Part shown: positions 1,880-52,394 of the stretch, piece by piece
Position numbering within the stretch: position 1 is the stretch's first letter
Layout: every line of letters starts with the position of its first letter
Origin: Firmicutes bacterium HGW-Firmicutes-9
GTDB lineage: Bacteria > Bacillota > Clostridia > Christensenellales > CAG-138
Direction of reading: 5' to 3'
Length of the DNA stretch: 64,000 bases
Assembly: GCA_002841395.1 (NCBI GenBank)
Contig: PGZM01000001.1
Span: 298,089 to 362,088, forward strand
Translations under genes and position numbers: made by a program
The notes under the pieces: generated by a model
The model's input: the letters and a program-made list of their open reading frames with translations, nothing else
The model's database searches: none
Told to the model about the DNA's origin: nothing

Positions 1880-1995
1880 AGACATAAGATTTCAATGGTA
1901 ATTCAAATTTCGATCACAGGCTTGCTGCAGATATTCGGGATATGTATCAGTACAAGTGTGTGGCGGAAATGAAAATAAAAGGAGGATGTATAAGA

Positions 1996-3156
1996 ATGAA
2001 AAAGGTTCTGGTATTCCTGATGGTTGCTTTGATGATGCTTTCCGTGGCATGTGCAAAGCCCGCCGCCCCTGCCGCTGACTCCAATGCTGCGGCACCCGCA
2101 GAACCCGCTGCAACTACCGAAGCAGCGACGGAAACAACCGAAGCAGCTGCCCCCGTGGATGGTGCTATCACACTTGGTTCCGGCTATTCAATCATGACAA
2201 CCGTGAAGCTGCTGGGCATCGGCTGGTTCGACAGAACCGAGACTATGGTCAGAGAGTTTGCTGAGAACACCGGCAACAACACCTATCAGACTGGTCCGTC
2301 TGAAGTCGATGCGGCTGCCACCAACCAGCTCCTCGAAGACGCGATTGCAACTGGTGTCAACGCCATCTGCATTATCCCGTTCTCGCCGTCTTCCGCGGAT
2401 TCCGTTCTCGCGAAAGCCAGAGAACAGGGCATCGTCGTCATCAGCCACGAAGCAACCGACCAGGTTGAGTGCGACTACGATCTCGAAGCGTTCGATAACT
2501 TTGCATACGGTGCAATCCTGATGGATTACCTGGCAAAGGGCATGGGCGAACAGGGTGAGTATTACACCACGGTTGGCGGTCTGACAGCTACTTCCCAGAA
2601 TCAGTGGGAAGAAGGCGGATTCAATCAGCAGCAGGCAAAGTACCCGAATATGACGGCTGTTGAGAGAAAGATCGAGACCAACGACGCACAGGCCAAGTCC
2701 AAGTCGATCATGGCTGAAATGATCAACAAGTATCCCGAACTCAAGGGCTTCCAGGGCGCAACCTCGCAGGATGCTCCTGGCGCAGCAGAAGCCGTTTCCG
2801 AAGCCGGCCTGATCGGCAAGATCACCGTCGTCGGTACTTCCATGCCGTCAATCGCTTCAAAGCAGCTCGAAGAAGGTTCGCTGTTTGCGATGGCTCTCTG
2901 GGATCCGGGCCTCACCGTGTATGCAATGCAGACACTGGCGGTCATGATGCTTGATGGCAACGGCGCGCTCATCAACGAAAACCTCGACCTGTCCAAGGCT
3001 TCCGGCTATGAAGGCGGCCTCGCGGGTTATGAGAAGTTGTCGTTCACAGATGGCGCTGGCGATGGCAAGATCATCTTTGCAAACGCGACGTTGGTTATCG
3101 ACAGCGTTGAGAAGATGAACGAGTACAAAGATGCAAGCGGTAACTTCTACCTGTAA
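1996..3156 (+). CDS. Sugar ABC transporter substrate-binding lipoprotein (type I periplasmic-binding fold, RbsB/LsrB-like)
   Basis: ATG at 1996 is preceded by AAAGGAGGA. Signal peptide plus lipobox MKKVLVFLMVALMMLSVAC, followed by an Ala/Pro/Thr/Glu-rich linker. PBP-like segments VNAICIIPFS and GIVVISHEA. The track start at 1942 has no RBS. Confidence 0.8.
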   Translation: MKKVLVFLMVALMMLSVACAKPAAPAADSNAAAPAEPAATTEAATETTEAAAPVDGAITLGSGYSIMTTVKLLGIGWFDRTETMVREFAENTGNNTYQTGPSEVDAAATNQLLEDAIATGVNAICIIPFSPSSADSVLAKAREQGIVVISHEATDQVECDYDLEAFDNFAYGAILMDYLAKGMGEQGEYYTTVGGLTATSQNQWEEGGFNQQQAKYPNMTAVERKIETNDAQAKSKSIMAEMINKYPELKGFQGATSQDAPGAAEAVSEAGLIGKITVVGTSMPSIASKQLEEGSLFAMALWDPGLTVYAMQTLAVMMLDGNGALINENLDLSKASGYEGGLAGYEKLSFTDGAGDGKIIFANATLVIDSVEKMNEYKDASGNFYL

Positions 3157-3225
3157 GAACGAAATCCGAATCAATATCCCGAAAAGTTAAACTTGCGGCG
3201 AATGTCCAAATAGATGGAAATCTGT

Positions 3226-3249
3226 GGAGGTGATCGCAAGATCACCTCC
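3226..3249 (+). other. Strong GC hairpin in the SBP-ATPase intergenic region (possible mRNA stabiliser/partial terminator)
   Basis: ggaggtgatc-gcaa-gatcacctcc forms a perfect 10-bp stem with no T-run after it. This is a typical position for differential SBP expression. Confidence 0.35.
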
Positions 3250-3401
3250 CGCCGCGCGTCAGTAGAGGAACAAAAATGTACCATTCGTCCATTACAATGA
3301 TATAATCAAAGAAATCACATTTCTTTTTATCATTGTTGGTACGGCTCATCATAGGATATGGTACAAATCATTACAAATCTTGTACAAGGAAGGTTGCGAC
3401 T

Positions 3402-4889
3402 ATGTCGGATGTTATCCTTCGCGCGATCAATATCAACAAATCTTTTGCCGGAGTGCATGCTCTGACGGATGTAAACCTAACCATTCGCAAGGGTGAAGTC
3501 CGCTGCCTCATCGGCGAGAATGGCTGCGGGAAATCAACGCTAATTAAGGTTATCTCTGGAGTATATACTCCAGATTCAGGTGAGCTTGAAGTAGCAGGGC
3601 ATAAATTCGGAAAATTACAGCCGGATCAGGCAATGAGTATGGGAATTCAAGTAATCTATCAGGATTTCTCGATTTTTCCGAACCTGACGGTTGCGGATAA
3701 TATTGCCATGAATACATTTCGCGTCCAAAAGAAAAAGTTGATCAATTGGCGGACGATCCGCAGAAAAGCACAGGAAGCGCTGGATCACCTTGACGTAAAA
3801 ATTGATCTTGACGTCAAGGCGGAGGCTCTCTCGGTTGCAGATAAGCAAATCGTTGCGATTTGCCGAGCCATCATTCAGGATGCCAAGCTCATCATTATGG
3901 ATGAGCCGACAACAGCGTTGACGAAAAAGGAAGTTTCCTCGCTGCTGGACATTATTCGGCAGCTGAAAGAGGAAGGGATTTCCGTTATCTTCGTAACGCA
4001 TAAACTCGAGGAAGTTATCGGCGTTACTGATACAGTCACCATTCTACGAAACGGCGTTTGCGTGGTCGACGGCGAGGAAACCTCGAACTTTGATGCCAAC
4101 AAGCTCGCTTTCTACATGACGGGGCATGAAATCGTAGATGAGAAATTTGTGCCTGAGATTACAAATGGCAAAGAGCTTTTGAGGATAGAGAAACTTTCTC
4201 TCAAGGATGGATTCAACGACATTACGCTTACAGTCAATAGCGGAGACGTTCTTGGCGTCACCGGACTGCTTGGTTCGGGAAGAACGGAACTGGCGCAGTG
4301 CCTTTTCGGTCAATTCCCCGCAACCTCAGGCGAGATTTTTATTGAAGGAAAACCGGTAAAAATCCGGAGCGTAAAAGATGCGATTAGGAACGGTATCGGA
4401 TATGTGCCCGAAGATCGTTTGACAGAAGGCTTGTTTTTAAAGAAATCGATTGCAAGCAATATCTTCGTCAGCGTAATTGAGAAGTTCCGAAAAGCACTCG
4501 TTTTTTCCGATAATCGCTCGCTAAAGGCGACAGCCGATCGATGGGTCAAAGAGCTCTTGATCAAAACACCGGATTCGGAGAATATCATAACGACGCTTTC
4601 GGGCGGCAACCAACAGCGTGTCGTGCTTGCCAAATGGCTGGCTCGTAATCCCAAAATCCTGATTTTGAATGGACCGACCGTAGGCGTTGATATCGGGTCG
4701 AAGCTCGAGATTCATAAGGTTCTTCGTAAACTTGCGAATCAGGGTATCGCCATCATTATCATCTCGGATGACATACCGGAAGTGTTAACGAACTGCAACA
4801 AGGTTGTCATTATGAAGATGGGACGCATCGTCGGTGAGATGGATTCCAAAGTGGTTAAGCACGAGCAACTTGCGGGTATGCTTGCATAA
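3402..4889 (+). CDS. Sugar ABC transporter ATP-binding protein, tandem ABC domains (RbsA/MglA/LsrA type)
   Basis: ATG at 3402 follows AAGGAAGG. Walker A GENGCGKST in the first half, a degenerate second Walker A (GLLGSGRTE), and signature LSGGNQQRV. Confidence 0.9.
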   Translation: MSDVILRAININKSFAGVHALTDVNLTIRKGEVRCLIGENGCGKSTLIKVISGVYTPDSGELEVAGHKFGKLQPDQAMSMGIQVIYQDFSIFPNLTVADNIAMNTFRVQKKKLINWRTIRRKAQEALDHLDVKIDLDVKAEALSVADKQIVAICRAIIQDAKLIIMDEPTTALTKKEVSSLLDIIRQLKEEGISVIFVTHKLEEVIGVTDTVTILRNGVCVVDGEETSNFDANKLAFYMTGHEIVDEKFVPEITNGKELLRIEKLSLKDGFNDITLTVNSGDVLGVTGLLGSGRTELAQCLFGQFPATSGEIFIEGKPVKIRSVKDAIRNGIGYVPEDRLTEGLFLKKSIASNIFVSVIEKFRKALVFSDNRSLKATADRWVKELLIKTPDSENIITTLSGGNQQRVVLAKWLARNPKILILNGPTVGVDIGSKLEIHKVLRKLANQGIAIIIISDDIPEVLTNCNKVVIMKMGRIVGEMDSKVVKHEQLAGMLA

Positions 4890-4920
4890 TGTGGAAAATA
4901 CACAGAAAGGATCAAAATCA

Positions 4921-5955
4921 ATGATTGGAAAAAAGCTCAGCAGGATCGCAAAAACGAATGAGTTTTTTGTCTTGCTTGTTATTCTCGTTGTATTTTTTAC
5001 AGTCAGCGCAATCAGCCCGGTCTTTTTATCCGCATACAGTCTTGTTTCGGTCATAAAGACAGCAATAGAGCCGATTATCTATGCGGTTGGAGCATATCTC
5101 GTCATTCTTTCCGGCGGGATCGATCTTACCGTTGCGGGCATCGGTGCGTTTTCGATGTTCACGGCAACAAAGATTGTTTTCAGCATGAACTACGAAGGCT
5201 CCGCGCTATTGCCCTATCTGCTGGCAATTGGGTTCGGCGCTGCGCTGGGAATGATCAACGGGCTTCTGATTTCGCGGCTGAAGATTCAGCCTATGATCGC
5301 GACTCTCGGCATGAACAGTATAATCAACGGCGTAATGCTGTTTTTTATCGGTTCTCGTGAGATTTCTCAGGTTCCAATTGGGATTCAAACCGCCGGGAAG
5401 ACATATGTCATGACCGTATATAATGCAAACGGTGTAGCGGCGCCTCTTTCTACCACGATTTATATAACGATTGCAGTCGTATTCGTGGTGTATCTATTAC
5501 TAAGGTATACGATGCTTGGCGCGAACATTTTTGCAATAGGAGGTAATGTAGAGTCTGCCATGCGCGCAGGAATCGACGTGAAGAAAACACAGTTCATCGT
5601 ATATGTGCTCGCCGGCATGCTCTATGGTCTCGGCGGTATGGTGCACACGATTACCTACGTCAACAGCAACCCGATGGACCTACTGGGCCAGGAGATGATC
5701 ACGATTGCCGCGGTCATAATCGGCGGCGCTCGCATTACGGGTGGTCACGGAACGCTGACAGGTACGGTACTTGGCGTACTGTTGATACAGCTGATCGATA
5801 ACTGTCTGAACACGGTTGGTATTCCGAGCTTCTGGCAGAGACTCGTTGTCGGTCTCGTACTCTTGGTTGGTACAAGTTTAACATCTTATCAGGCGCTGAA
5901 AGAGAAGAGAAGGCTCCACGTAGAAATCTCGTCGGCACCTATTTCGATGCAGTAA
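4921..5955 (+). CDS. Sugar ABC transporter permease (RbsC/LsrC-like)
   Basis: ATG at 4921 follows AAAGGATCAAAATCA. Polytopic membrane protein with GGIDLTVAG and GGARITGGHGT motifs of the ribose-type permease family. Confidence 0.85.
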   Translation: MIGKKLSRIAKTNEFFVLLVILVVFFTVSAISPVFLSAYSLVSVIKTAIEPIIYAVGAYLVILSGGIDLTVAGIGAFSMFTATKIVFSMNYEGSALLPYLLAIGFGAALGMINGLLISRLKIQPMIATLGMNSIINGVMLFFIGSREISQVPIGIQTAGKTYVMTVYNANGVAAPLSTTIYITIAVVFVVYLLLRYTMLGANIFAIGGNVESAMRAGIDVKKTQFIVYVLAGMLYGLGGMVHTITYVNSNPMDLLGQEMITIAAVIIGGARITGGHGTLTGTVLGVLLIQLIDNCLNTVGIPSFWQRLVVGLVLLVGTSLTSYQALKEKRRLHVEISSAPISMQ

Positions 5956-5965
5956 GGAGTTGGAT

Positions 5966-7021
5966 ATGGAAATGAATCGGACAAAGAAGAGTTCCTGGTT
6001 ATACCATATCTTTTATGAGACAAAGCTCGGTTGGCTGTTTTCGCTAATGGTCATCGCTTATGTAGGTATGGGTTTCATGTCGTTTGCGCTGAAGGGGAAC
6101 TTCAAGTATTTCTCCCCGAACACGTTGCAGACGATGGCCGGGCAGATCCCGGAAGTCGGTATTCTGGCAATTGGCATTATTCTGCCAATGATCACCGGCG
6201 GCATCGATTTATCGATGGTTGGAAAGGCGAATCTTGCTGGCGTAGTTGCGGCAGCGTTTATGACATCCGTCATTACGGAAACCACGCCGGATAGCACGCA
6301 GATGCTCATTGCCATTGCAGCAATCTTGCTTGCGCTGGTCGTCGGTGCGCTCGCCGGTTTGATCAATGGCATAATCATCAGCAAATTCAACGCGCCGCCT
6401 TTGATTGTAACGCTTGGCAGCAATTACGCATTCATGGGCATTGCCGTGGTCATTACGCAAGGCAAGTCAATTGTCGGCTTACCGGCGGCATTTAACAGCC
6501 TAGGACAAGGATACACGTTAGGCATTATTCCAAACCAATTTGTGGTTCTTGCGATTGTGGCCACGGTGATTTGGTTTATGACATCCAAAACTCCTTACGG
6601 CACGAAACTGTTCATGACTGGTTCCAACATGGTTGCCGCGGAGTTCTCGGGCATTGATATCAAGAAACTTCTGCGCACGACTTACACAATCTCAGGCGTA
6701 CTTGCAGCGATCTCGGGTTGCATCCTCTTCGGCCGCTCGAATCAAGCGAATGCCGACTATGGTACGACATATACCCTGCAGGCGATCATGATCGCTGTGC
6801 TTGGCGGAACCAGCCCGGAAGGCGGCGAAGGCAACGTTTTAGGCGTGATCTTCGCGATGTTTACCATGCAGTTCCTGGCGACAGGCATGAACTTCTTCCA
6901 GGTAACAAACGTAACTTACCTCAAAGACATCGTTTGGGGCGGCGTGCTGCTGATCGTTATGGTCGTGAACTATGTTACCGCATTGCGTCGGACCAAGAAC
7001 GCTTTGAAAAAGTCTTTCTAA
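5966..7021 (+). CDS. Sugar ABC transporter permease, second subunit (RbsC/LsrD-like)
   Basis: ATG at 5966 lies 7 nt after AAGGAG (the track uses TTG at 5960). Motifs GGIDLSMVG and GGTSPEGGEGN; polytopic. Confidence 0.85.
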   Translation: MEMNRTKKSSWLYHIFYETKLGWLFSLMVIAYVGMGFMSFALKGNFKYFSPNTLQTMAGQIPEVGILAIGIILPMITGGIDLSMVGKANLAGVVAAAFMTSVITETTPDSTQMLIAIAAILLALVVGALAGLINGIIISKFNAPPLIVTLGSNYAFMGIAVVITQGKSIVGLPAAFNSLGQGYTLGIIPNQFVVLAIVATVIWFMTSKTPYGTKLFMTGSNMVAAEFSGIDIKKLLRTTYTISGVLAAISGCILFGRSNQANADYGTTYTLQAIMIAVLGGTSPEGGEGNVLGVIFAMFTMQFLATGMNFFQVTNVTYLKDIVWGGVLLIVMVVNYVTALRRTKNALKKSF

Positions 7022-7131
7022 TAAACCTATAGCGGAACTTGATTACTCGTAAGCAACGGGATACATCAATTTGGCATGAATAACTGTTGGATATAGAAAC
7101 TTAAAGGACAACAAATGAAAAGGAGCAAGGT

Positions 7132-7398
7132 ATGAAACAAGCATTGGGCATGGTCGAGACGAAAGGCCTGGTTGGGGCAATCGAAGCGGCAGATGCTATG
7201 GTGAAAGCGGCAAATGTAACGTTGCTCGGAAAAGAGAAGATTGGCAGCGGCCTCGTTACCGTCATGGTTCGGGGAGATGTAGGCGCCGTGAAAGCCGCAG
7301 TTGAAGCGGGTTCAGCGGCGGCAAAACGTGTGGGCGATGTCGTATCGATCCATGTAATTCCGAGCCCGCACGACGACGTGGAGAAAATACTGCCGTAA
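7132..7398 (+). CDS. BMC-H shell protein (PduA/EutM-type hexamer), paralog 1
   Basis: [57 protein letters not shown] is the canonical Pfam00936-type BMC domain. RBS AAAGGAGCAAGGT. Confidence 0.95.
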
Positions 7399-7425
7399 CG
7401 GAAGATGTCAGATAGGAGCTTGAAT

Positions 7426-8247
7426 ATGGATATCAATGAAATCATAAAAACGATCACGGAGCAGGTCATAGCCGAGATCAACAAGAGTGGTTGCTCCACA
7501 GCGCCGGAAGGCAAGACCAACTACGCAAGGTACATCGACCACACGCTGCTCAAGCCGGATGCAACGGAAGCGAAGATCAAGAAGGTGTGCGACGAAGCGA
7601 AGCAATACAACTTTGCGAGTGTCTGCGTGAATCCTTCCTACATTGCATTTGTGGCAAAAGAGCTCAAAGGAAGCCCCGTCAACCCCTGCGTTGTCATTGG
7701 GTTCCCGCTTGGTGCAACAACACCCGCGGTGAAGGCTTTTGAAACAAATGATGTCATCGAAAAAGGCGCAAAAGAGGTCGATATGGTGCTCAACATCGGC
7801 GCTGCAAAATCCGGTAACTGGGCGCTAGTGGAAGAGGACATCAAGGCGGTGGTGCATGCGTCACGCGGGCGCGCGCTGGTCAAGGTTATCCTTGAAACTT
7901 GCTTGCTGACGGATGAGGAAAAGGTAAAGGCCTGCACAATCAGCAAACTCGCCGGAGCGGACTTTGTGAAAACATCAACGGGCTTTTCCACCGGTGGCGC
8001 GACGGTAGAGGACGTGAAACTCATGCGCGCGACGGTCGGCCCGCAGATGGGCGTGAAAGCGTCCGGAGCAGTGCGCGACTATGAAACCGCGAAGAAGATG
8101 ATTGAGGCTGGAGCAACCCGTCTTGGCACGAGTTCAGGCGTTGACATCGTATCGGGGAAAACAGAGAATCACGAGTGCGTAAACTGCGGTAAGTGTACTG
8201 TAAACTGCCCGACGGGCAATGTCTCTGTGAACAAAGGCGTATATTAA
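7426..8247 (+). CDS. deoC: Deoxyribose-phosphate aldolase paralog 1 with N-terminal encapsulation-peptide-like helix and C-terminal CxxCxxCxxxCP tail
   Basis: DERA core motifs: [38 protein letters not shown] (Schiff-base Lys context) and [11 protein letters not shown]-terminal [21 protein letters not shown]-terminal [19 protein letters not shown] at 7426 has AGGAG 7 nt upstream; the alternative ATG at 7405 lacks an RBS. Confidence 0.9.
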
Positions 8248-8266
8248 AAATCGGAGGAGTAAGCAT

Positions 8267-8536
8267 ATGCAAGAAGCATTAGGAATGGTTGAAACAAAGG
8301 GACTTGTTGGCGCAATCGAAGCGGCTGACGCAATGGTCAAGGCGGCGAATGTCACGTTGATCGGTAAAGAGAATATCGGTTCCGGTCTGGTGACCGTAAT
8401 GGTTCGCGGTGATGTCGGCGCAGTAAAAGCATCTGTCGAGGCCGGCGCTGCAGCAGCCAAGCGTGTTGGCGAACTGTATTCGGTGCATGTCATTCCGCGC
8501 CCGCATGCGGATGTGGAAAACATCCTGCCCAAATAA
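8267..8536 (+). CDS. BMC-H shell protein, paralog 2
   Basis: [54 protein letters not shown]; RBS GGAGGAGTAAGCAT. Confidence 0.95.
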
Positions 8537-8580
8537 CGTAGATCGCGCAAGAGAACAAATATGAATTAGAGGTGCTGCAG

Positions 8581-9228
8581 ATGATGGAGTCGGAAGTCAA
8601 ACGTCAGGTGACGCTTCGTATGCTCAAAGAGTACGCGGCAAAATCGGTCTATTATGTTCCGGCAGCGGTATCAAACCGGCATATCCATTTGTCGCAGGAT
8701 GCGCTGGAAGCTCTTTTTGGCAAAGGATACACGCTCGAGCAATTTAAGCCGTTATCGCAGCCGAATCAGTACGCCTGCGAAGAGAAGTTAACATTTGTGG
8801 GTCCGAAGAACAAGATGGATGGCATTCGGATACTCGGACCTGTTCGTTCGGCTACGCAGATTGAGTTTTCCTTAACTGATGCATTCTACTTAGGAATTCC
8901 TCCGGTTGTACGCATGTCCGGCGATTTGAAAGATACTCCCGGCGGCAAACTGATCGGTCCAAACGGAGAGTATATGCTCACTAGTGGGGTTATTATTTCC
9001 CAGTGCCACCTGCATGCGTCCAAGGAGGAAGCAGCATGGTATGGACTGAAAGACGGAGATTCCGTTTGTGTTCGAAAGCGCGGTTTGCGGACTGTCTTGT
9101 TTGAGAATGTACTGGTACGCGCGGGAGATACGCATAGTCTGGAGCTTCATTTTGATACAGACGAAGCGAATTCGGCGTTGATTGAAAACAGCGATTTGTT
9201 AGAGGTCGTTCGGAGCTGGGAGATATGA
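8581..9228 (+). CDS. pduL: Phosphate acyltransferase PduL (BMC-associated phosphotransacylase)
   Basis: Two PduL repeat signatures: AVSNRHIHLSQDALEALFG and ISQCHLHASKEEAAWYGLKDGD. ATG at 8581 lies 6 nt after AGAGGTG (the track uses GTG at 8572). The N-terminal segment ESEVKRQVTLRMLKEYAAK is amphipathic. Confidence 0.9.
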   Translation: MMESEVKRQVTLRMLKEYAAKSVYYVPAAVSNRHIHLSQDALEALFGKGYTLEQFKPLSQPNQYACEEKLTFVGPKNKMDGIRILGPVRSATQIEFSLTDAFYLGIPPVVRMSGDLKDTPGGKLIGPNGEYMLTSGVIISQCHLHASKEEAAWYGLKDGDSVCVRKRGLRTVLFENVLVRAGDTHSLELHFDTDEANSALIENSDLLEVVRSWEI

Positions 9229-9911
9229 TTGACGAAGCGCAAATAAGGGAAATCATTCGCCGGGTAACAGAGCGCGTTCTGGATCGATTGATGGCGGAAG
9301 GACTCTTCCTGCCGGAGCAGAACGGGGCGCTTGTTCTCGTGTCGAATTTTATCCCTGAACCGGCGCTGCTTAACAAATATCTCAAAAGCCGTTTCACAAC
9401 CGGGGTAACTTGCGCTGCGCTTGAGCTATATACCAGACTGGATCCGGAGTTTGACGCAGTTTTCGCAGCTCGAGTGGATGAGCAGCAACGATTGTTCTCT
9501 ACGCTTAAATTCTATGAACACATCGTGCTCGCCATGCCGTCGATGCAACTGCTGAACAGGATAGCAATCGGCGATGACAGCGGATTTACGGAACAGCTGG
9601 TGCTGCGCGCAATTCTAATGCGAAAGAAAGTGACGGTGGTGCTGGACTACCAGCCGCCGAAGTTTAAGCGCGGCACCTTTTTTGAGGGCGTCGTGAACTC
9701 CATTACGGCGCTGAAGGACATGGGGGCGGAGATTGTTTCACTAACGCCTGTGCTCAGATCTGCTGATCTTGTCTGTGAGCTGGTGACGGAAGACACGATA
9801 CTACGGGCGTATTTATGCGGAGATCGAAGCATTCAATGCACAAAAGGGACCATTGTTACACCTTTGGCCAAAGATAAGGCAAACGAACTCGGCATTGCGA
9901 TCGAAGGATAG
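9225..9911 (+). CDS. BMC-associated protein of unknown function (flavoprotein/HFCD-like core suspected; EP-like N-terminus)
   Basis: ATGA overlap with the pduL stop. N-terminal MIDEAQIREIIRRVTERVLDRLMAEG. The core LAMPSMQLLNRIAIGDDSGFTEQLVLRAILMRKKVTVVLD resembles flavoprotein-family loops. C-terminal TIVTPLAKDKANELGIAIEG resembles a short module seen on BMC-linked adenosyltransferases. Function not assignable from sequence. Confidence 0.6.
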   Translation: MIDEAQIREIIRRVTERVLDRLMAEGLFLPEQNGALVLVSNFIPEPALLNKYLKSRFTTGVTCAALELYTRLDPEFDAVFAARVDEQQRLFSTLKFYEHIVLAMPSMQLLNRIAIGDDSGFTEQLVLRAILMRKKVTVVLDYQPPKFKRGTFFEGVVNSITALKDMGAEIVSLTPVLRSADLVCELVTEDTILRAYLCGDRSIQCTKGTIVTPLAKDKANELGIAIEG

Positions 9912-9920
9912 GAGAAAACC

Positions 9921-10226
9921 ATGATTCTAGCGCGTGTAAGAGGTAACGTTGTCAGCACAAATAAAGCGGAAAAACTGCTTGGATTAAAGTTGCTGATTGT
10001 CGTTCCAATCGATATTGAGACCTTTCAGGAGAAAGGGCAACCGCTCGTTGCCATCGACACGGTGGGGGCTGGCGAGAATGAGGTTGTCATGTGCGTTGGT
10101 GGCAGTTCATCGCGACAAACATCGATTACGGATGGAAAGCCTTCCGATCTGGCGATTATTGCGATCATCGACTCCGTCGAGCTGCGCGGGGATATCGTTT
10201 TTAGAAAATACGAGCAGAAGGAATGA
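9921..10226 (+). CDS. BMC-P vertex pentamer (EutN/CcmL/PduN family), paralog 1
   Basis: MILARVRGNVVSTNKAEKLLGLKLLIVVPID...AIDTVGAGENEVVMCVGGSSSR; RBS AGGAGAAAACC. Confidence 0.9.
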   Translation: MILARVRGNVVSTNKAEKLLGLKLLIVVPIDIETFQEKGQPLVAIDTVGAGENEVVMCVGGSSSRQTSITDGKPSDLAIIAIIDSVELRGDIVFRKYEQKE

Positions 10227-10322
10227 TCTGCGCGCTGTCGCATAACCGCAACCGACCTTCGGCCTGCATTTTGCATGCGATTTTGCAGGCGGCCGGAGTA
10301 GCAAGGACAGGGAGTGATTTAA

Positions 10323-11729
10323 ATGAGTTTATCGGATGAGCAAATTCGAATGATAATTGAGGATACGGTCAAGCAGATTTCCGGCATCGGCAGCGGCGTG
10401 AGCACTGCTCCGACCTGCTGGCTCTGCGACGACCCGGAAAGCGCGATCCAGGCCGCTAAAGCCTCGCAGGAACAGCTGATGAAGTTATCTCTTGAAGAGC
10501 GCGGCAGACTGATCGAATCCATGCGTATAGCCGCTCGCGAACAGGTCAACTACCTCTCTGAGCTTGCGCATAAGGAGACGGGATATGGCAAGGTCGCGGA
10601 CAAAATTAAGAAAAATCTTTTAGCGATTAATAAAACCCCTGGCATAGAGGACTTACCGACGAGCGCCATGAGCGGCGACTTCGGTCTTACCATTGTGGAA
10701 TGCGCTCCGTTTGGTGTTATCGGGTCGATCACACCTTCCACAAACCCGACATCCAGCGTGATCAACAATTCTATCAGCATGATCGCTGCTGGAAATGCGG
10801 TTGTTTACAACCCGCACCCCGCGGCGAAACAAGCGTCGATCGAGACGATGCGCATCCTAAACGAAGCCATCGTAAAGGCTGGGGGACCGCCGGCGCTGAT
10901 CTGCACGGTTAAGAACCCAACGCTGGAAACGGGCAAATATATCATGGAACATCCGGATATTCCGCTACTGTCCATTACTGGCGGCGAAGCGGTGGTGAAG
11001 GTTGCGATGAAGACGGGAAAGAAAGTTATCGCCGCGGGCCCAGGCAATCCGCCAGTCATCGTGGACGATTCGGCAGATATCAAAAAAGCCGCTCAGGATA
11101 TCGTAGACGGGGCGAGCTTTGATAACAACGTGCTCTGCATTGCTGAGAAGGAGGTTTTCGCCATTTCAGAAATTGCGGAACCGCTCATGCGCCATATGGA
11201 ACTGAACGGCGCGTATCGTCTGACGGGATCAGATGTAGAGAAGGTTGTCAAGACGGTCTTAATACACGAGAACGGTAAATACGTGGTCAATCGCAAGTTT
11301 GTTGGCCGCGATGCGACATATATCGCCAGCGAAAGCGGCGTGAACTACACGGGCAACCCAAGGTTGCTCATCGCCAGTGTGGAGGAAAACCACCCGTTTG
11401 TCACGGTCGAGATGCTAATGCCGGTGCTCGGTGTCGTTCAGGTGTACACGATTGAAGAAGCAATATCAAAGGCAATCAAGGCAGAGAACGGCTGCAAGCA
11501 CACGGCCATGATCCACTCTCAGAATGTAACGCATCTGACCATGGCGGCAAAAGCGATGAACACCACGATTTTCGTCAAGAACGCACCATCCTATGCGGGA
11601 CTCGGATTCAACGGCGAGGGGTTCACGACACTAACCATCGCGACCCCGACCGGCGAGGGACTGACGAGCGCGAGAACGTTTACCCGCTCGCGCAGGTGTG
11701 TTCTGTATGGCAACTTGAGGATCGTGTAA
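10323..11729 (+). CDS. CoA-acylating aldehyde dehydrogenase (PduP/EutE family) with N-terminal encapsulation peptide
   Basis: N-terminal MSLSDEQIRMIIEDTVKQISGIG. Catalytic Cys context FDNNVLCIAEKEV. Length of 468 aa is typical of BMC AldDH. Confidence 0.9.
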   Translation: MSLSDEQIRMIIEDTVKQISGIGSGVSTAPTCWLCDDPESAIQAAKASQEQLMKLSLEERGRLIESMRIAAREQVNYLSELAHKETGYGKVADKIKKNLLAINKTPGIEDLPTSAMSGDFGLTIVECAPFGVIGSITPSTNPTSSVINNSISMIAAGNAVVYNPHPAAKQASIETMRILNEAIVKAGGPPALICTVKNPTLETGKYIMEHPDIPLLSITGGEAVVKVAMKTGKKVIAAGPGNPPVIVDDSADIKKAAQDIVDGASFDNNVLCIAEKEVFAISEIAEPLMRHMELNGAYRLTGSDVEKVVKTVLIHENGKYVVNRKFVGRDATYIASESGVNYTGNPRLLIASVEENHPFVTVEMLMPVLGVVQVYTIEEAISKAIKAENGCKHTAMIHSQNVTHLTMAAKAMNTTIFVKNAPSYAGLGFNGEGFTTLTIATPTGEGLTSARTFTRSRRCVLYGNLRIV

Positions 11730-11744
11730 CACGGAGGATGAAGC

Positions 11745-13082
11745 ATGGGTGTTGTAGAACAAATCCGTGACGCAGGCGTCGTTGGTGCTGGCGGAGCGGG
11801 TTTCCCGACACATATCAAAGCAGGCGGCAAGGCGGAAATCGTTCTGGCAAATGGTGCCGAATGTGAGCCGCTGCTGCGCGTCGACCGCCTGATGATGCAG
11901 CATTATCCGCAGCAGGTTGTTCGCGGGCTCAAGGCGATCATGGAGTCAACCGGCGCAGGCAGTGGTGTCATCTGCCTGAAAAAGAAGTATCACGACGCGA
12001 TCGATGCGCTGGAACAGGCGATCTCCGGGGAACCGAATATCCGTCTGTTTGAGATGGAGAGCTATTATCCCGCAGGTGACGAGCAACAAATGGTCTACGA
12101 GGTCACGGGCAAGGTAGTGCCGACCGGCGGCATACCGCTGGATGTTGGTGCGGTGGTCTGCAACGTCAGTACATTGATCAATATCGCCAACGCGATGGAC
12201 GGTCAACCCGTGATCGACAAGGTAGTTACTGTAGGCGGCGAGGTGAAGCGGCCGGTCACGTTGAGAGTACCGATCGGCACCCCGATCCGGCTTCTGGTGG
12301 AAGCAGCGCAGGGGCCGAAAAGCCTTGATGGATACACGATCGTAATCGGCGGACCTGCGACGGGGAAACTCTGTAACGATTGGGACGAGCCGGTCACGAA
12401 AACGACCGGCGGAGTATTGGTGTTTCCGTCTGATCACCCGTTGATTCAGAAGAAAACGGACCAGAAGGAAGTGGACTGGAAGCTCGCCAAAGCGGTCTGC
12501 TGCCAATGCAACATTTGCACGCAGATTTGTCCGCGCAATAACCTCGGCCTCGGCGTAGAGCCGCACAAGGCGATGCGCGCTGCGTTTATGTCCAACGGGA
12601 AACTGCTCGGCGATTACAACGGAATCTTCTCCTGCTGCGACTGCGGGCTCTGCAGTTATTATGCCTGCAACTTCGGGCTCAGCCCGAGCCGCATGATGGC
12701 GCGCATGAAAGCGGGTCTGCGCCAGAATGGCGTAAAGCCGGAGAAGCGGATTCGCACCAGCGTATCCCAGAGCCTCGAGTGCACCAAGGTTCCGACCAAG
12801 CGGCTGATGTCTCGCATGGGGATTCTACAGTACGACACGGAAACACCGCTGGACGAGCAGGGCGTATCCGTTTCGATCGTACAAATTCCATTGAGCATGC
12901 ATATCGGTGCGCCGTCGATCTCGGTGGTCAAATACGGGGATCGGGTAGCAAAGGGCCAATTAATCGCAGAGATTCCGGAGAAGAGCTTGGGCGCGCGGAT
13001 TCACGCAAGCATCGGTGGAATCGTAACAAACATCACAAACAACATGATAGAGATATCAGCGCAGAAGCGGGATAAGGAGTAG
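11745..13082 (+). CDS. PduS-like NAD(H)-binding Fe-S flavoprotein (RnfC/SLBB-type)
   Basis: GVVGAGGAGFPTHIK (NADH/FMN-binding Complex1_51K-like). Two Cys clusters, CCQCNICTQICPRN and CCDCGLCSYYACNFG. C-terminal barrel-sandwich-like region. Confidence 0.85.
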   Translation: MGVVEQIRDAGVVGAGGAGFPTHIKAGGKAEIVLANGAECEPLLRVDRLMMQHYPQQVVRGLKAIMESTGAGSGVICLKKKYHDAIDALEQAISGEPNIRLFEMESYYPAGDEQQMVYEVTGKVVPTGGIPLDVGAVVCNVSTLINIANAMDGQPVIDKVVTVGGEVKRPVTLRVPIGTPIRLLVEAAQGPKSLDGYTIVIGGPATGKLCNDWDEPVTKTTGGVLVFPSDHPLIQKKTDQKEVDWKLAKAVCCQCNICTQICPRNNLGLGVEPHKAMRAAFMSNGKLLGDYNGIFSCCDCGLCSYYACNFGLSPSRMMARMKAGLRQNGVKPEKRIRTSVSQSLECTKVPTKRLMSRMGILQYDTETPLDEQGVSVSIVQIPLSMHIGAPSISVVKYGDRVAKGQLIAEIPEKSLGARIHASIGGIVTNITNNMIEISAQKRDKE

Positions 13083-13086
13083 GGTC

Positions 13087-13632
13087 TTGAACGCATTAGG
13101 CATGATTGAAACAAACAGCATTCCGGCGGGGATTGAAGCCGGGGATGCGATGCTCAAAGCGGCCGATGTCACGCTGGCAAGCGCTCAGCCGGTCTGCGCG
13201 GGCAAATATATCGTGATCGTCTCCGGCGGCGTTGCGGCGGTGGATGCTGCGGTAGCGGCGGGCGTTGCAACCGCGGCTGAGGTGCTGGTGGATAGCATCG
13301 TGATTCCAAATGTACACGAACAGGTGATTCAGGCCATCGGTGCTTGCTCGGAAGTGTTTTCAACCGGCGCGCTGGGACTGATCGAGACGTTTTCGCTCGC
13401 TTCCGCGGTGATTTGCGCTGATACGGCGGTCAAGGCCGCAAACGTGAATCTCATCGAGATTCGGCTCGGGCGCGGGCTTGGCGGCAAGTCGTTTATCACG
13501 ATGATCGGCGAGGTTTCCGCGGTGCGCTTTGCAGTAGAGTCGGCGGAAAAACTCGAGGAAACAAAAGGAATGGTCGCGCGGACGGTGGTCATCCCGTCAC
13601 CGCATCCAGATATTTTACAGACAATCTTTTAA
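13087..13632 (+). CDS. BMC-T tandem-domain shell protein, PduT-like
   Basis: Two BMC domains: ALGMIETNSIPAGIEAGDAMLKAADV and ALGLIETFSLASAVICADTAVKAANV. Cys37 (QPVCAGK) sits at the position of the PduT pore [4Fe-4S] ligand. TTG start at 13087 (alternative ATG at 13102). Confidence 0.85.
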   Translation: MNALGMIETNSIPAGIEAGDAMLKAADVTLASAQPVCAGKYIVIVSGGVAAVDAAVAAGVATAAEVLVDSIVIPNVHEQVIQAIGACSEVFSTGALGLIETFSLASAVICADTAVKAANVNLIEIRLGRGLGGKSFITMIGEVSAVRFAVESAEKLEETKGMVARTVVIPSPHPDILQTIF

Positions 13633-13659
13633 CCGTTACGCAGAGACAAGGAGAAGAAT

Positions 13660-13983
13660 ATGGAAAAACAAGCACTTGGTCTGGTGGAAACCAAAGGTCT
13701 TGTCGGCGCGATTGAAGCCGCTGACGCGATGGTAAAGGCAGCAAACGTTACGTTGATCGGTAAAGAGAACATTGGCTCAGGCTTGGTCACCGTGATGGTT
13801 CGCGGCGATGTCGGGGCGGTGAAGGCAGCCGTGGAAGCGGGTTCCGCGGCGGCAAAGCGTGTCGGCGAGCTCGTCAGCTCGCATGTGATCCCTCGTCCGC
13901 ACGACGAGGTGGAGGGAATCCTTCCGCAACAGGCTGCCACGACAGAGAAACCGCAGGCAAAAAAAGCGACTGTAAAGAAATAA
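13660..13983 (+). CDS. BMC-H shell protein, paralog 3, with Lys-rich C-terminal tail
   Basis: Canonical BMC-H core plus an extra tail, [18 protein letters not shown]. Confidence 0.95.
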
Positions 13984-14019
13984 GTTTGGTACTGGCGGAT
14001 CGAAAGGGGTGAACCCATC

Positions 14020-14286
14020 ATGTACACCGGAATAGTTGTCGGTTCGGTCGTATCGACAGCAAAGGACGAGAAGCTGCAAGGGATAAAGTTGCTCGTTGTA
14101 CAGATGATCGAAAACGGAAAACCAACCAAACTCATCGTTGCCGCGGACCAGACAAGACAGGCCGGACAGGATGATTTTGTGTACCTGATTGGCTCGAAAG
14201 AGGCCTCGCTCATCTTTCGGGGCGGATTGGTCCCTGCAGATGCGGCGATCGTTGGATTTGTAGATCAATATAACGAATATATTTAA
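14020..14286 (+). CDS. BMC-P vertex pentamer, paralog 2
   Basis: MYTGIVVGSVVSTAKDEKLQGIKLLVVQMIENGKPTKLIVAADQTRQAGQDDFVYL. Confidence 0.9.
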   Translation: MYTGIVVGSVVSTAKDEKLQGIKLLVVQMIENGKPTKLIVAADQTRQAGQDDFVYLIGSKEASLIFRGGLVPADAAIVGFVDQYNEYI

Positions 14287-14304
14287 TAGTAAGGAGAATG
14301 CACA

Positions 14305-14577
14305 ATGGAAAAGCAAGCATTGGGAATGGTGGAAACCAAGGGCCTCGTAGGCGCGATCGAAGCCGCAGACGCAATGGTAAAGGCTGCGAACGTCACGCTC
14401 ATCGGTAAGGAAAAGATCGGCTCGGGTCTCGTGACCGTGATGGTACGCGGGGATGTCGGTGCGGTGAAAGCATCTGTTGAGGCTGGCGCCGCTGCAGCAA
14501 AACGCGTTGGAGAGCTGTACTCTGTCCATGTGATTCCGCGCCCGCATGAAGATGTGGAAGGTATTCTACCGAAATAA
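14305..14577 (+). CDS. BMC-H shell protein, paralog 4
   Basis: [55 protein letters not shown]; RBS AAGGAGAATGCACA. Confidence 0.95.
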
Positions 14578-14640
14578 CTTGCATAGACGGGAACCAGTAC
14601 ATCGTTTTATGAACGAGAACAGGATCGGAGATGCCACAAA

Positions 14641-14931
14641 TTGAGGATTGCTAGAGTAGTTGGCAATGTAGTTTCAACAATCAAGGACAGAAAGTTTCAT
14701 GGGCACAAACTCATGATTGTTGAGTTTGTCGATTTGAACGGAAACCCGATCGAATCGCGCCAGATCGCCTTTGACGCTGCGAACGCGGGCGTAGGTGATC
14801 TTGTGCTGGTCAATGTGGATGGCGGTGCGACAAAGATGTTTTTCAACGACGATGAACTGATTGCCGACTGGACAATCTGCGGTGTTTTGGATCATTACTC
14901 AATCGATGGCGTAACGATACGCAAACCGTAA
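14641..14931 (+). CDS. BMC-P vertex pentamer, paralog 3
   Basis: TTG start. MRIARVVGNVVSTIKDRKFHGHKLMIVEFVDLNGNP...AFDAANAGVGDLVLVNVDGGA. Confidence 0.85.
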   Translation: MRIARVVGNVVSTIKDRKFHGHKLMIVEFVDLNGNPIESRQIAFDAANAGVGDLVLVNVDGGATKMFFNDDELIADWTICGVLDHYSIDGVTIRKP

Positions 14932-14950
14932 CAGACAGAGGTGAAGACAC

Positions 14951-15718
14951 TTGGATATTGAAGCGATCGTGGCGAAAGTCACGCAAGAGGTATATGCGCG
15001 CCTTGCGCCTGCCGAGCTGGCTGAAGGCGCAAAACCCGCACGGGCGAGAATGCTCACCGGCATGGAGCTGGCAGGCTCGTTGGAGCACTCGCTGCTAAAC
15101 CCGGACACATCCACTGATAAGATCAAGCAGGGCTGCGAGGAAGCGAAGAAATTTGGCTTTGTGAACGTCTGCGTTTCACCTTACTTTGTCAGTCTGGCAA
15201 AAGAGCGGCTGGGTGGATGCAACGTTGGTATCTGTGTGCCCGTTGGATTTCCGCACGGCGCGGCATCTACAAAGGCGAAGTGCGCGGAGATTCGAGAGGC
15301 GATTCTAAACGGAGCAACCGAGCTGGATGTATCGCTGCAGATCGTTGCGATCAAGTCCGGCGACTACGACGCGGTGGAAAAAGATTTGGCGGAGATGATC
15401 TCCGTCGCGGGCGGACGAGCGAAGGTCAAGGCAATCTATGAGCAGGGGCTTTTGACGGACGAAGAGAAGCTGAGGACGCTTGCGATTATTCAAAGAAGCT
15501 GTGCCGATTACGTGAAGATATCCAACGCATTGACCGGAGCGAAAGCGTGCATGAACGACGTCAAATTCGTGCGCTCTATCGTTGGCCTGGGGATAGGCAT
15601 TAAGATTGACGGCGGGATCAAGGACGCAAAGACCGCTTCCATCTTGCTGGGTTCGGGTGCAAATCGCCTCGGATGCAGCGCGTCGGTGCAGATTGTGACC
15701 ATACCGGCTGAACCGTAA
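14951..15718 (+). CDS. deoC: Deoxyribose-phosphate aldolase paralog 2 (divergent active-site context) with N-terminal encapsulation-peptide-like helix
   Basis: TTG start 7 nt after AGAGGTGA. N-terminal MDIEAIVAKVTQEVYARLAP. DERA-like LEHSLLNPDTS and VPVGFPHG. The Schiff-base region reads YVKISNALTGAKA and the second Lys region GIKIDGGIKD, both divergent from paralogs 1 and 3. Confidence 0.8.
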   Translation: MDIEAIVAKVTQEVYARLAPAELAEGAKPARARMLTGMELAGSLEHSLLNPDTSTDKIKQGCEEAKKFGFVNVCVSPYFVSLAKERLGGCNVGICVPVGFPHGAASTKAKCAEIREAILNGATELDVSLQIVAIKSGDYDAVEKDLAEMISVAGGRAKVKAIYEQGLLTDEEKLRTLAIIQRSCADYVKISNALTGAKACMNDVKFVRSIVGLGIGIKIDGGIKDAKTASILLGSGANRLGCSASVQIVTIPAEP

Positions 15719-15826
15719 GTAACGTTTTTAACGGTTGTCGCTGGATGCGTCGCCCTTTTTGGCGTTGCTTCTTAGGTGAATGCAGGCAGGAGTTTATTTG
15801 AGCGCTACCTACAGGAGAGTATTGCT

Positions 15827-16399
15827 ATGAAAATGGTCAAAGATAAGAAACTTGCCATCGGCGCGGATTTTGCCGGATATCCATTGAAGGAGGCGGTCGT
15901 TGCGCACCTGAAAAAGAAGGGGTGGGAGATCGAAGATGTCGGCGTAACGGATTTATCCGTAGACAGCGATGAGAATATGTTTCATCGGGTTGGGTTGCGC
16001 CTTGGAGCGAAGATATCGGAAGGCGAATATGAACGTGCGTTGGCATTCTGTGGGACTGGCATGGGGATTCACATCGCGGCATCAAAGTGTCCGCGCGTCC
16101 ATGCGGGCGTTGTGGAGAGTGTTCCAGCAGCATTGCGCGCCATCACAGGCAATGGCGTAAATGTACTGGCGATGGGTGCATTTTACGTTGCGCCAAAGAT
16201 GGGTTGCGACATTGCCGATGTATATCTGAACGCCTCTTTGGGCAGCGGGTATGAATGGTGGACGAACTTCTATGAGTTCCATAAGTTGGCGATCGATGAA
16301 CTTGATGCCTTCGACTACGAGACGTATAAAGCAAATGGATTTAAACTAAAATACCTTGGTAACTATCCAATCAAACTTGAAGTAAAACCCGAAGATTAA
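15827..16399 (+). CDS. RpiB/LacA/LacB-family sugar-phosphate isomerase with about 45-aa C-terminal extension
   Basis: ATG at 15827 follows AGGAGAG. Motifs LAIGADFAGYPLKE and AFCGTGMGIHIAASK (catalytic Cys context). Extra C-terminal segment WWTNFYEFHKLAIDELDAFDYETYKANGFKLKYL... Confidence 0.8.
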   Translation: MKMVKDKKLAIGADFAGYPLKEAVVAHLKKKGWEIEDVGVTDLSVDSDENMFHRVGLRLGAKISEGEYERALAFCGTGMGIHIAASKCPRVHAGVVESVPAALRAITGNGVNVLAMGAFYVAPKMGCDIADVYLNASLGSGYEWWTNFYEFHKLAIDELDAFDYETYKANGFKLKYLGNYPIKLEVKPED

Positions 16400-16407
16400 A
16401 AAACGAA

Positions 16408-16447
16408 CTGGATAGAACGAATCGATTCTATCCAGTTTTACTTTTTT
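16408..16447 (+). terminator. Intrinsic terminator closing the BMC operon
   Basis: ctggatagaa-cgaatcga-ttctatccag followed by ttttactttttt. Confidence 0.8.
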
Positions 16448-16579
16448 GCGGTAAAATGAATCTACGATATATCGCTATTCAAAACTCTGCCATTCACCAA
16501 TCAACTTGAATGTGATATCTGGATAGGGAGAACCTCGAAGAGGAATTACTCGCCCTTTGACTCGAGAAGGAGCCAAATA

Positions 16580-17626
16580 ATGTCTCGTATTCAAGAGATA
16601 GCTTCGAAAGCGAACGTATCAATCTCAACGGTTTCCAGGGTCTTCAATAATTCCGGCTATGTAGCGGAAGACAAGAGGACTGCTGTTCTTGATGCAGCAA
16701 AACAGCTGGGATACAAGATACCAAAGAAAACCAAGGGTGAATACGATAAGATGGTTAGCGATGTGGTCGGCATTGTGGTGCCGGATATCAACAACCCTTT
16801 CTTCAGCGAGTCCATAAAAGGCATGATGAAGGTTATGCGCGAGAACGATATTCATAGTTTAATTTGCGATACGGATGAAAGTCCTGAAATAGAAATTCGA
16901 TCGTTGCAAACTCTTCGTCGGCAAAAGGTGGGGGGACTTATCATTACACCGGTATCAAGCGCAGTGGAGTATAACGCAGAGTATCTTAGGGAATTCAACA
17001 ATCTCGGCATGCCTATTGTGTTGCTAGACCGCGACATTAAGTTTTCCGGTTTTGACGGTGTTTTTCTTGATAGTTTTCGCGGAACATTGGATGCTGTTCA
17101 GACACTGATTAATAACGGGCATACGGAGATTGCAATAATTGCAGGCCTGATCACATCAAAACCTGGTTTGGATCGCCTGGAAGGGTATCTGGAAGCGCTG
17201 CGACAGAACAATATCCCCATCAAGGAAGAGTATATCCTCTACGGCAACTTCAAACAGGACAAAGCATACGACTTAACATCGAAACTACTCGAAACAAAAA
17301 AAGAAGTCACCGCAATTTTCTCTTCGAACAACCTGATGTCCGTTGGCTGTTTTGAGGCGATTAACAATAAAGGATTAAAAATCCCGGATGACATTTCGCT
17401 TATCTCGTTTGACGATTTCTATTTCTTTGGCGCGGGCAATATCAACATCAGCGCTGTGTTACGCCCGACAATGCAGATGGGCGTTGAAGCTGCGATGCTT
17501 CTTGTTGACCAAATCAAGTCGAAGAGAAGACCGAAAGATCAAATGTCAAAGCGAATCATTCTCTCGCCACATCTCCTTTTGCGAGGTTCGGAGAAGTACC
17601 CGACCAATCGGTTGCCGAAACCGTAG
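16580..17626 (+). CDS. LacI-family transcriptional regulator
   Basis: HTH MSRIQEIASKANVSISTVSRVFNNSGYV followed by a periplasmic-binding-like effector domain. RBS GAAGGAG. Confidence 0.9.
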   Translation: MSRIQEIASKANVSISTVSRVFNNSGYVAEDKRTAVLDAAKQLGYKIPKKTKGEYDKMVSDVVGIVVPDINNPFFSESIKGMMKVMRENDIHSLICDTDESPEIEIRSLQTLRRQKVGGLIITPVSSAVEYNAEYLREFNNLGMPIVLLDRDIKFSGFDGVFLDSFRGTLDAVQTLINNGHTEIAIIAGLITSKPGLDRLEGYLEALRQNNIPIKEEYILYGNFKQDKAYDLTSKLLETKKEVTAIFSSNNLMSVGCFEAINNKGLKIPDDISLISFDDFYFFGAGNINISAVLRPTMQMGVEAAMLLVDQIKSKRRPKDQMSKRIILSPHLLLRGSEKYPTNRLPKP

Positions 17627-19914: not shown

Positions 19915-20502
19915 ATGCAGATAGACGCGAGGGGCAAGGCCTGCCCGATGCCTGTGATCATGGCGAAAAAGGAGATTGACGGCGGCTGTCAGGAGCTGAC
20001 TGTATTGGTCGATAATAAAACCGCGGTGGAGAACCTCACGCGGCTTGGCAACTCCGCCGGCATGCATGTCACCACTGGGGAGAATTCCGAAGGGCTGTTC
20101 GTCCGCCTGACAGGCGAAGGAAAGTTCACCGAGGAACCAGTAATCGAATGCGCGACAACGAGCAGCGGTTACGCGGTTTTCATCGGCAAGGATATCGTCG
20201 GCGCGGGCGATCGCGAACTGAGCTATAACCTGATGAAGATGGCGCTCTATACACTGGCGCAGGGCGACAGCGTGCCTGCACACGTGCTGTTTATGAACGA
20301 TGGCGTGAAGCTGCCGGCGGGCGAGGAGCAGCAGGTGATCGACAGCCTGATGACGCTGATCGAGAAGGGTAGCAAGGTGCTGGTCTGCGGCACGTGCCTG
20401 AATTTCTACGGCATCGCGGACCGTCTCAAGGTCGGCATTGTCAGTAATATGTATGATATCCTCGGCGCGATGCAGCGCGCAGATAAGGTGATCTCGCTGT
20501 AA
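19915..20502 (+). CDS. yedF: YedF-type sulfurtransferase-like selenium metabolism protein (TusA/SirA domain + DsrE-like domain)
   Basis: N-terminal MQIDARGKACPMPVIMAKKEI (TusA CPxP motif) and a C-terminal DsrE-like segment VLVCGTCLNFYG. Confidence 0.75.
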   Translation: MQIDARGKACPMPVIMAKKEIDGGCQELTVLVDNKTAVENLTRLGNSAGMHVTTGENSEGLFVRLTGEGKFTEEPVIECATTSSGYAVFIGKDIVGAGDRELSYNLMKMALYTLAQGDSVPAHVLFMNDGVKLPAGEEQQVIDSLMTLIEKGSKVLVCGTCLNFYGIADRLKVGIVSNMYDILGAMQRADKVISL

Positions 20503-20766
20503 ATGGAACACTATTGGTTGTTCGCGTTTGATTCCCCGCATGCGGCGATCTCAGCGCAGCGGCTGCTCTCCGGCTGCGGCGTGGTTGTGATGCCGACGCT
20601 CAGGAGCATCACCGCGAGCTGCGGCATGTCCCTGCGCCTGCGGGATGAGACCATCGAAAAAGCTAAAGGAATTTTGCGCGCGTCGAGCATCGACCCCGCG
20701 CTTTATCGATTATATCGGGTAGAGCAGGAGGGAAAAGAGACTGTGTGTACGCCGATCGAATTCTGA
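20503..20766 (+). CDS. DUF3343-like small protein (usual YedF partner)
   Basis: Starts immediately after the yedF stop. 87 aa, with LFAFDSPHAAISAQRLL and ASCGMSLRL segments. Confidence 0.65.
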   Translation: MEHYWLFAFDSPHAAISAQRLLSGCGVVVMPTLRSITASCGMSLRLRDETIEKAKGILRASSIDPALYRLYRVEQEGKETVCTPIEF

Positions 20767-52363: not shown

Positions 52364-52394
52364 GGACAGAAATTGCCCGAAAGGAGCGAACAGA

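Follow-up and report, generated by a model that had tools for sequence, protein, structure and literature searches.

We analyzed a 64,000-nt stretch of the genome of Firmicutes bacterium HGW-Firmicutes-9 (contig PGZM01000001.1, positions 298,089 to 362,088; hereafter the window) that, judged from its genes, encodes a bacterial microcompartment (BMC) of the sugar-phosphate utilization (SPU) type, the metabolosome of an uncultured Christensenellaceae bacterium. Our main conclusion, to which we assign a probability of about 0.7, is that NAD+ is recycled in this compartment by electron export with no alcohol dehydrogenase (ADH). NADH formed by the aldehyde dehydrogenase (AldDH) would be oxidized by a PduS-family flavoprotein, the metabolosome NADH dehydrogenase (MNdh), and the electrons would be passed out through an adjoining PduT-family tandem shell trimer (BMC-T^SE). 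Electron export is considered the best explanation because MNdh is the sole candidate NADH sink in the operon and its gene lies between those of AldDH and of the shell tile with the pore cysteine. The original prediction, made from the sequence alone, had likewise proposed that NADH is re-oxidized by passing electrons through the shell; it is supported here by homology and gene context, and it coincides with the published MNdh/BMC-T^SE model. The idea is thus correct but not novel, as it was published in 2024 with experimental backing on homologues.

The PduS-like flavoprotein and its predicted shell partner

The MNdh reading frame begins with ATG, 6 nt downstream of a GGAGGA ribosome-binding site. 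The AldDH gene ends 15 nt upstream of it and the BMC-T^SE gene follows after 4 nt, in agreement with the direct succession of the three genes described originally. By Pfam analysis the domain order of MNdh is PF01512 (residues 7-148, 4.8e-47), SLBB PF10531 (160-192), Fer4_17 (252-312) and RnfC_N PF13375 (378-436). Its best relative of solved structure is RnfC (7zc6_C, 9e-61), which aligned across the NADH/FMN and Fe-S regions, while the N-terminal domain of RnfC aligned with MNdh residues 364-431, the circular permutation typical of PduS. RnfC of the Rnf complexes and MNdh therefore have an NADH/FMN site and a dicluster domain in common but differ in that the barrel-sandwich domain is N-terminal in RnfC and C-terminal in MNdh, and in that the partner of RnfC is a membrane complex and that of MNdh a shell protein.

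The NADH/FMN motif GAGGAGFPT and the two Cys clusters attributed to this protein at the outset were both located. The former (residues 14-22, nt 11784-11810) pairs with GMGGATFPT of RnfC, and the latter correspond to the 4Fe-4S motifs C252xxC255xxC258xxxC262P (nt 12498-12533) and C297xxC300xxC303xxxxC308 (nt 12633-12668). An extra N-terminal Cys is found at residue 40, and the Cys motifs are also present in 14 related loci. In Citrobacter PduS the corresponding residues are C264/267/270/274 and C309/312/315/320, with an extra conserved C54 (Parsons et al. 2010, PMC2982820). Cys spacing is identical in the two proteins, including the unusual four-residue spacer of the second motif and the extra Cys, whereas the glycine-rich motif is at 28-33 in PduS and at 14-19 in MNdh, which is thus about 14 residues shorter at its N-terminus. 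By domain order, motifs and gene adjacency MNdh of this locus belongs to the PduS family, and its cofactors and NADH oxidation are predicted on this basis.

The BMC-T^SE reading frame starts with TTG, with AAGGAG positioned 7 nt upstream. The TTG start (13087) was preferred over the ATG at 13102 chosen by one gene caller, as PduT and 3NWG then align with the protein from residue 1-2 onward; homologues starting MNALGM agree with it. Since the TTG start is backed by the AAGGAG site, the alignment and the homologues, the numbering of Cys37 used here is taken as correct. Two PF00936 domains (8.5e-46) are arranged as a single-layer tandem, and the protein matched 3NWG (3e-52) and PduT 3PAC (6e-42) in the PDB. 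The QPVCAGK segment aligned without gaps with KTICPGK of 3PAC and KPVCPGK of 3NWG, which places Cys37 (codon nt 13195-13197; CAGK motif residues 37-40, nt 13195-13206) at the position of the PduT pore ligand Cys38, as had been proposed. In an AlphaFold2 (AF2) monomer model (pLDDT 92.7), Cys37 lies in a hairpin between strands 29-36 and 40-47, and the model superimposed on 3NWG, 3PAC and 3N79 with TM-scores of 0.92-0.94 (0.94 for PduT 3PAC, 0.93 for 3N79). Cys37 was invariant in 40 aligned BMC-T homologues.

Proposed electron export and competing routes of NAD+ recycling

By the mechanism that we favor, an encapsulated deoxyribose-phosphate aldolase (DERA) would cleave a deoxy-sugar phosphate into glyceraldehyde-3-phosphate plus acetaldehyde inside the shell, and the acylating AldDH would convert acetaldehyde, CoA and NAD+ to acetyl-CoA and NADH, with one NADH formed per acetaldehyde. 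CoA would be returned by PduL. NAD(H) exceeds ordinary shell pores in size, and MNdh would regenerate NAD+ in place: NADH would reduce FMN, and single electrons would move through the two [4Fe-4S] clusters. MNdh probably binds to the lumenal side of the trimeric BMC-T^SE, where a further [4Fe-4S] cluster, held by three Cys37 residues, would sit in the central pore and release electrons to a cytoplasmic acceptor; docking, direction and acceptor are inferred for this locus. The whole acetaldehyde supply could then proceed to acetyl-CoA and acetyl-phosphate with no ethanol by-product.

Exit of electrons from the compartment through PduS and PduT was already suggested in 2010 (Parsons et al., PMC2982820), and Sutter et al. 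(2024, PNAS, PMC11626177) proposed electron export from NADH to the shell, renaming PduS as MNdh and PduT as BMC-T^SE. In their survey of 2,172 PduS-containing loci a BMC-T gene was adjacent in 97%; 361 loci had no ADH, 1,725 had both systems and some had neither, and many B12-independent locus types with MNdh, SPU included, were recorded. The purified complex of Clostridium botulinum proteins held FMN as well as Fe-S clusters and oxidized NADH without B12 (kcat ~20 per second when O2 was the acceptor); its shell-protein cluster was reduced by NADH as detected by electron paramagnetic resonance (EPR), voltammetry was also supportive, and Fe-S potentials of -147, -217 and -349 mV were determined (PMC11626177). 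For SPU loci in particular, a PduS homologue was reported in every subtype but SPU6, where present being able to recycle NAD+ as MNdh (Dwyer et al. 2024, PMC11585597).

The pair examined here shares with the C. botulinum GRM1 pair a four-domain flavoprotein with permuted RnfC_N, an adjoining single-layer tandem BMC-T with a pore Cys, and co-occurrence with AldDH. It differs in its pore motif (CAGK versus CP(G/S)K); host lineage and compartment type also differ, this being a Christensenellaceae SPU-type aldolase compartment. The PduS and PduT proteins of Salmonella and Citrobacter are homologous to the pair as well, but Pdu loci encode the PduQ ADH and a B12-dependent diol dehydratase and the window locus encodes neither, which places it in the class of loci without ADH and B12 enzyme recorded by Sutter et al.

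The absence of an ADH was examined by Pfam analysis of the principal open reading frames (ORFs) in the 64 kb, down to a length of 150 aa. As claimed originally, no ADH family (PF00465, PF00107, PF08240) was detected in these ORFs, and the iron-type ADH signature GGGSxxD was absent from all six frames of the window. The same Pfam scan bore out the original statement that no cobalamin enzyme is encoded, with no diol dehydratase, ethanolamine lyase, adenosyltransferase, reactivase or other B12-dependent enzyme found in the scanned ORFs. We also scanned 73 flanking ORFs of 11 related loci. No iron-type ADH was seen among the 25 commonest families of these ORFs or by GGGSxxD motif search; the dehydrogenases present were zinc-type medium-chain (3 ORFs), short-chain and Gfo/Idh/MocA enzymes. 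By NCBIfam they were nearest to sugar or polyol models and scored best against those for galactitol-1-phosphate, threonine and inosose dehydrogenases, all below the curated cutoffs.

A number of observations weigh against electron export. The Pro of the CP(G/S)K pore motif, called universally conserved in BMC-T beside MNdh (Sutter et al. 2024, PMC11626177), is replaced by Ala in BMC-T^SE of the window. The operon has no gene for a ferredoxin, flavodoxin or other obvious acceptor, and the potentials of the C. botulinum clusters raise the question of which acceptor in a strictly fermentative anaerobe they would suit. Our ADH search covered the 64-kb window, which belongs to a 713-kb metagenome contig, and an unlinked ADH may be encoded elsewhere in the genome. 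Moreover, paired zinc-type medium-chain dehydrogenase genes were found next to the gene of the first aldolase (DERA1) in three related loci (L017, 5126-7100; L006, 14785-16914; L021, 10903-13048), a pair that is absent from the window.

The pore motif was followed further. CAGK was found in all 120 of the closest database homologues of BMC-T^SE, in 12 of 13 related loci and also in L019, a locus from Synergistales, while among 150 diverse BMC-T representatives the counts were CPGK 78, CPGR 12, CAGK 8 and CSGK 6, with about one quarter having no Cys. CAGK retains the ligand Cys as well as the Gly and Lys of CP(G/S)K. Because the ligand Cys is retained we regard CAGK as a clade variant, and because CAGK proteins adjoin MNdh in every locus seen, Pro appears to be frequent and not defining. 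The variant appears fixed across the Christensenellaceae and Synergistales clade, in which pore [4Fe-4S] binding is predicted.

An alternative that we judge unlikely is that MNdh and its shell protein are accessory, with most NAD+ recycled by a distal ADH or by NAD(H) slowly exchanging through the shell. The limited stretch of genome inspected leaves room for such an enzyme, loci with both systems and loci with neither have been published, and the zinc-type dehydrogenase genes lie in or beside the operons of three relatives. However, no ADH was found in the window scans, the relatives' dehydrogenases are closest to sugar and polyol enzymes, and those whose N-termini could be read (L006 and L017) begin at the catalytic domain. 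Since they have no encapsulation-peptide-like extension, they look like cytosolic sugar-feeding enzymes. Exchange of NAD(H) is further disfavored, as no double-layer gated BMC-T able to pass NAD(H) was detected in the operon by Pfam. Judged from the relatives' flanks, MNdh is weakly favored as the main recycler across the clade.

Two other roles for the flavoprotein received less credit. In vitro, Citrobacter PduS can reduce both cob(III)alamin and cob(II)alamin (PMC2982820), and a corrin reductase that reactivates a B12 cofactor was considered; this role was rejected as highly improbable, since neither a B12-dependent signature enzyme nor an adenosyltransferase or reactivase was found in the scanned ORFs of the window, the signature enzymes of the locus are class I aldolases, and Sutter et al. 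(PMC11626177) argue that any B12 role of PduS is indirect at most. Very unlikely, in our estimate, is also an inward flow of electrons or another lumenal redox task, such as keeping Fe-S centers reduced (for instance in the tail of DERA1), scavenging O2 or driving the pathway in the reductive direction. DERA1 does carry a conserved ferredoxin-type Cys motif and O2 serves as in vitro acceptor for the homologous complex (PMC11626177), but the metal site is putative and lies in a tail modeled at low confidence, the stoichiometry of AldDH requires an NADH sink, and the EPR and voltammetry data on the homologue favor a path from NADH through FMN and Fe-S to the shell cluster (PMC11626177). Electron export by MNdh and BMC-T^SE is thus retained as our reading of the locus.

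Other proteins of the SPU-type locus

The assignment to the SPU type is based on two DeoC-family (PF01791) aldolases that score above the TIGR00126 cutoff, an RpiB-family protein, AldDH and three BMC-P genes. By description the locus fits SPU1/4/7 (Sutter 2021; Dwyer 2024), which combine a phosphotransacylase (PTAC) and a PduS homologue with a BMC-P triplet and lack a double-layer BMC-T. A DERA with encapsulation peptide, an RpiB-family protein and AldDH are likewise common to SPU loci and the window. By contrast, the triosephosphate isomerase gene of SPU loci is absent from the window (it is present in the Synergistales relative L019), and the window differs in having two DERA paralogues, one of which has a Cys-rich tail.

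The AF2 model of DERA1 consists of a TIM barrel with an N-terminal encapsulation-peptide-like helix (residues 10-27) and a low-confidence C-terminal tail. This tail adds about 30 residues (251-280, window 8155-8247) and contains C258xxC261xxC264xxxC268P (nt 8176-8211) followed by a terminal Tyr280. The exact motif was found in 106 of 120 homologues and a spacing variant in most of the others, and Tyr280 was invariant. In E. coli DERA its counterpart is the catalytic tyrosine of the C-terminal tail. Tail-bearing homologues were located in BMC loci, apart from a single case next to an isolated PduL gene, whereas three tail-less homologues were outside any visible BMC context. We found no description of the Cys tail in the SPU literature consulted, including Dwyer et al. 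(2024, PMC11585597).

That the tail is an Fe-S site, such that this Christensenellaceae/Synergistales compartment has extra lumenal redox hardware, seems doubtful at present. Should it hold, two subunits might share the cluster in split-ferredoxin fashion, and the redox state of the lumen could gate the aldolase and hence acetaldehyde production; alternatively, the tail could provide a further relay for electrons on the way to the CAGK shell tile. Either role would tie aldehyde supply to electron-export capacity.

The N-terminus of DERA2 resembles an encapsulation peptide; a Cys tail is lacking. The RpiB homologue, for which one gene caller gave an alternative start at 15827, is extended by about 50 aa at its C-terminus and lacks a long linker at its N-terminus. 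Compared to 3HE8 it retains the catalytic Cys (FCGTG) and has Gly at the position of the active-site His. The Asp/His pattern of SPU RPIs (Dwyer et al., PMC11585597) is thereby inverted, with the Cys present and the His lost.

In most of the related loci long enough to show it, a gene for the 228-aa protein lies between those of PduL and BMC-P. Only 48 homologue clusters were found, none with a Pfam domain, and the protein has a weak TIGR02536 match at its C-terminus. Eight orthologues gave no Pfam match at E up to 10, and no PDB relative was found by sequence or profile search. A degenerate flavoprotein fold was suspected for this protein but was unsupported by the Pfam and PDB searches.

Gene layout, related loci and implications

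The locus is a single tightly packed gene block on the + strand (window 1942-17626), in which a sugar ABC transporter precedes the shell genes. A hairpin downstream of the RpiB gene probably terminates the operon. AldDH, like DERA1, begins with an encapsulation-peptide-like helix.

Table 1. Genes and other features of the SPU-type locus, in window coordinates.
Feature	Position	Strand	Evidence
Sugar ABC transporter, 5' of shell genes	1942-7021	+	Pfam Peripla_BP_4, ABC_tran x2, BPD_transp_2 x2
ABC transporter, binding protein	1942-3156	+	
ABC transporter, ATPase	3333-4889	+	
ABC transporter, permease	4834-5955	+	
ABC transporter, permease	5960-7021	+	
BMC-H shell hexamer protein	7132-7398	+	PF00936, 1.2e-29
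DERA1, deoxyribose-phosphate aldolase	7405-8247	+	TIGR00126 deoC, 296 bits (cutoff 117)
BMC-H shell hexamer protein	8267-8536	+	PF00936, 2.5e-30
PduL-type PTAC, CoA recycler	8572-9228	+	PF06130, 9.6e-67; NF011652, 231.8 bits
Conserved hypothetical protein, 228 aa, encapsulation-peptide-like N-terminus	9225-9911	+	Weak TIGR02536 eut_hyp match only
BMC-P pentamer protein 1	9921-10226	+	PF03319, 1e-26
CoA-acylating AldDH, predicted NADH producer	10323-11729	+	PF00171; NF011927, 635.9 bits
MNdh (PduS family), 445 aa	11745-13082	+	Pfam domains, RnfC match, Cys motifs
BMC-T^SE (PduT-family tandem shell trimer), 181 aa	13087-13632	+	Pfam, PDB alignment, AF2 model
BMC-H with Lys/Ala-rich C-terminal tail	13660-13983	+	PF00936, 2.6e-31
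BMC-P pentamer protein 2	14020-14286	+	PF03319, 4.7e-18
BMC-H shell hexamer protein	14305-14577	+	PF00936, 2.1e-30
BMC-P pentamer protein 3	14641-14931	+	PF03319, 2.3e-22
DERA2, divergent DeoC-family aldolase	14951-15718	+	TIGR00126, 183.5 bits; weak Pfam DeoC match
RpiB/LacAB-family sugar-phosphate isomerase	15776-16399	+	PF02502, 1.5e-27; alignment to RpiB 3HE8
Terminator-like 13-bp hairpin	16405-16438		Both strands matched
LacI-family regulator	16580-17626	+	

Just past the BMC operon (window 19915-20766), small TusA/DsrE-like and Se/S-carrier-like genes were noted 3' of a MalK-type ATPase. Farther along (window 51350-53315), the gene of a PfkB-family kinase and that of an indigoidine-synthase-A-like protein of the pseudouridine-5'-phosphate glycosidase family overlap; this pair presumably points to pseudouridine catabolism, a further nucleoside-salvage function in the region.

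The nearest genome relatives were Christensenella and Christensenellaceae metagenome-assembled genomes (87-93% identity), and the host is likely a strict anaerobe. The AldDH-MNdh-BMC-T core was detected in 14 related genome loci with MNdh identities of 51-93%, and on the longer of the related contigs the core is likewise flanked by genes for PTAC, the 228-aa protein, BMC-P and BMC-H. The Synergistales locus has the same module together with triosephosphate isomerase. In one 3.09-Mb Christensenellaceae metagenome-assembled genome (CAXXTQ010000001.1) three paralogous PTAC-to-BMC-P modules (L005-L007) were found, the flanking sugar-metabolism genes of which differ. In two further loci (L010, 17789-20154; L014, 14357-16755) a module with no DERA is followed by genes for methylthioribose kinase and methylthioribose-1-phosphate isomerase, which hints that these compartments serve aldehydes from 5-deoxyribose or methylthioribose salvage. 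The same core module thus recurs with different sugar-processing genes.

The locus deviates from published systems in its CAGK pore motif, the Cys tail of DERA1 and the active-site pattern of its RpiB homologue. Because it combines no ADH in the window with a CAGK pore and a host that is likely a strict anaerobe, it has value as a test case and sharpens the question of which acceptor serves outside the shell, a question that belongs to the published MNdh model and not to this locus specifically. As an ordinary further example of the published mechanism, the locus leaves current understanding unchanged; with it, an uncultured member of the Christensenellaceae joins the several hundred BMC loci that apparently depend on electron export alone for the recycling of NAD+.

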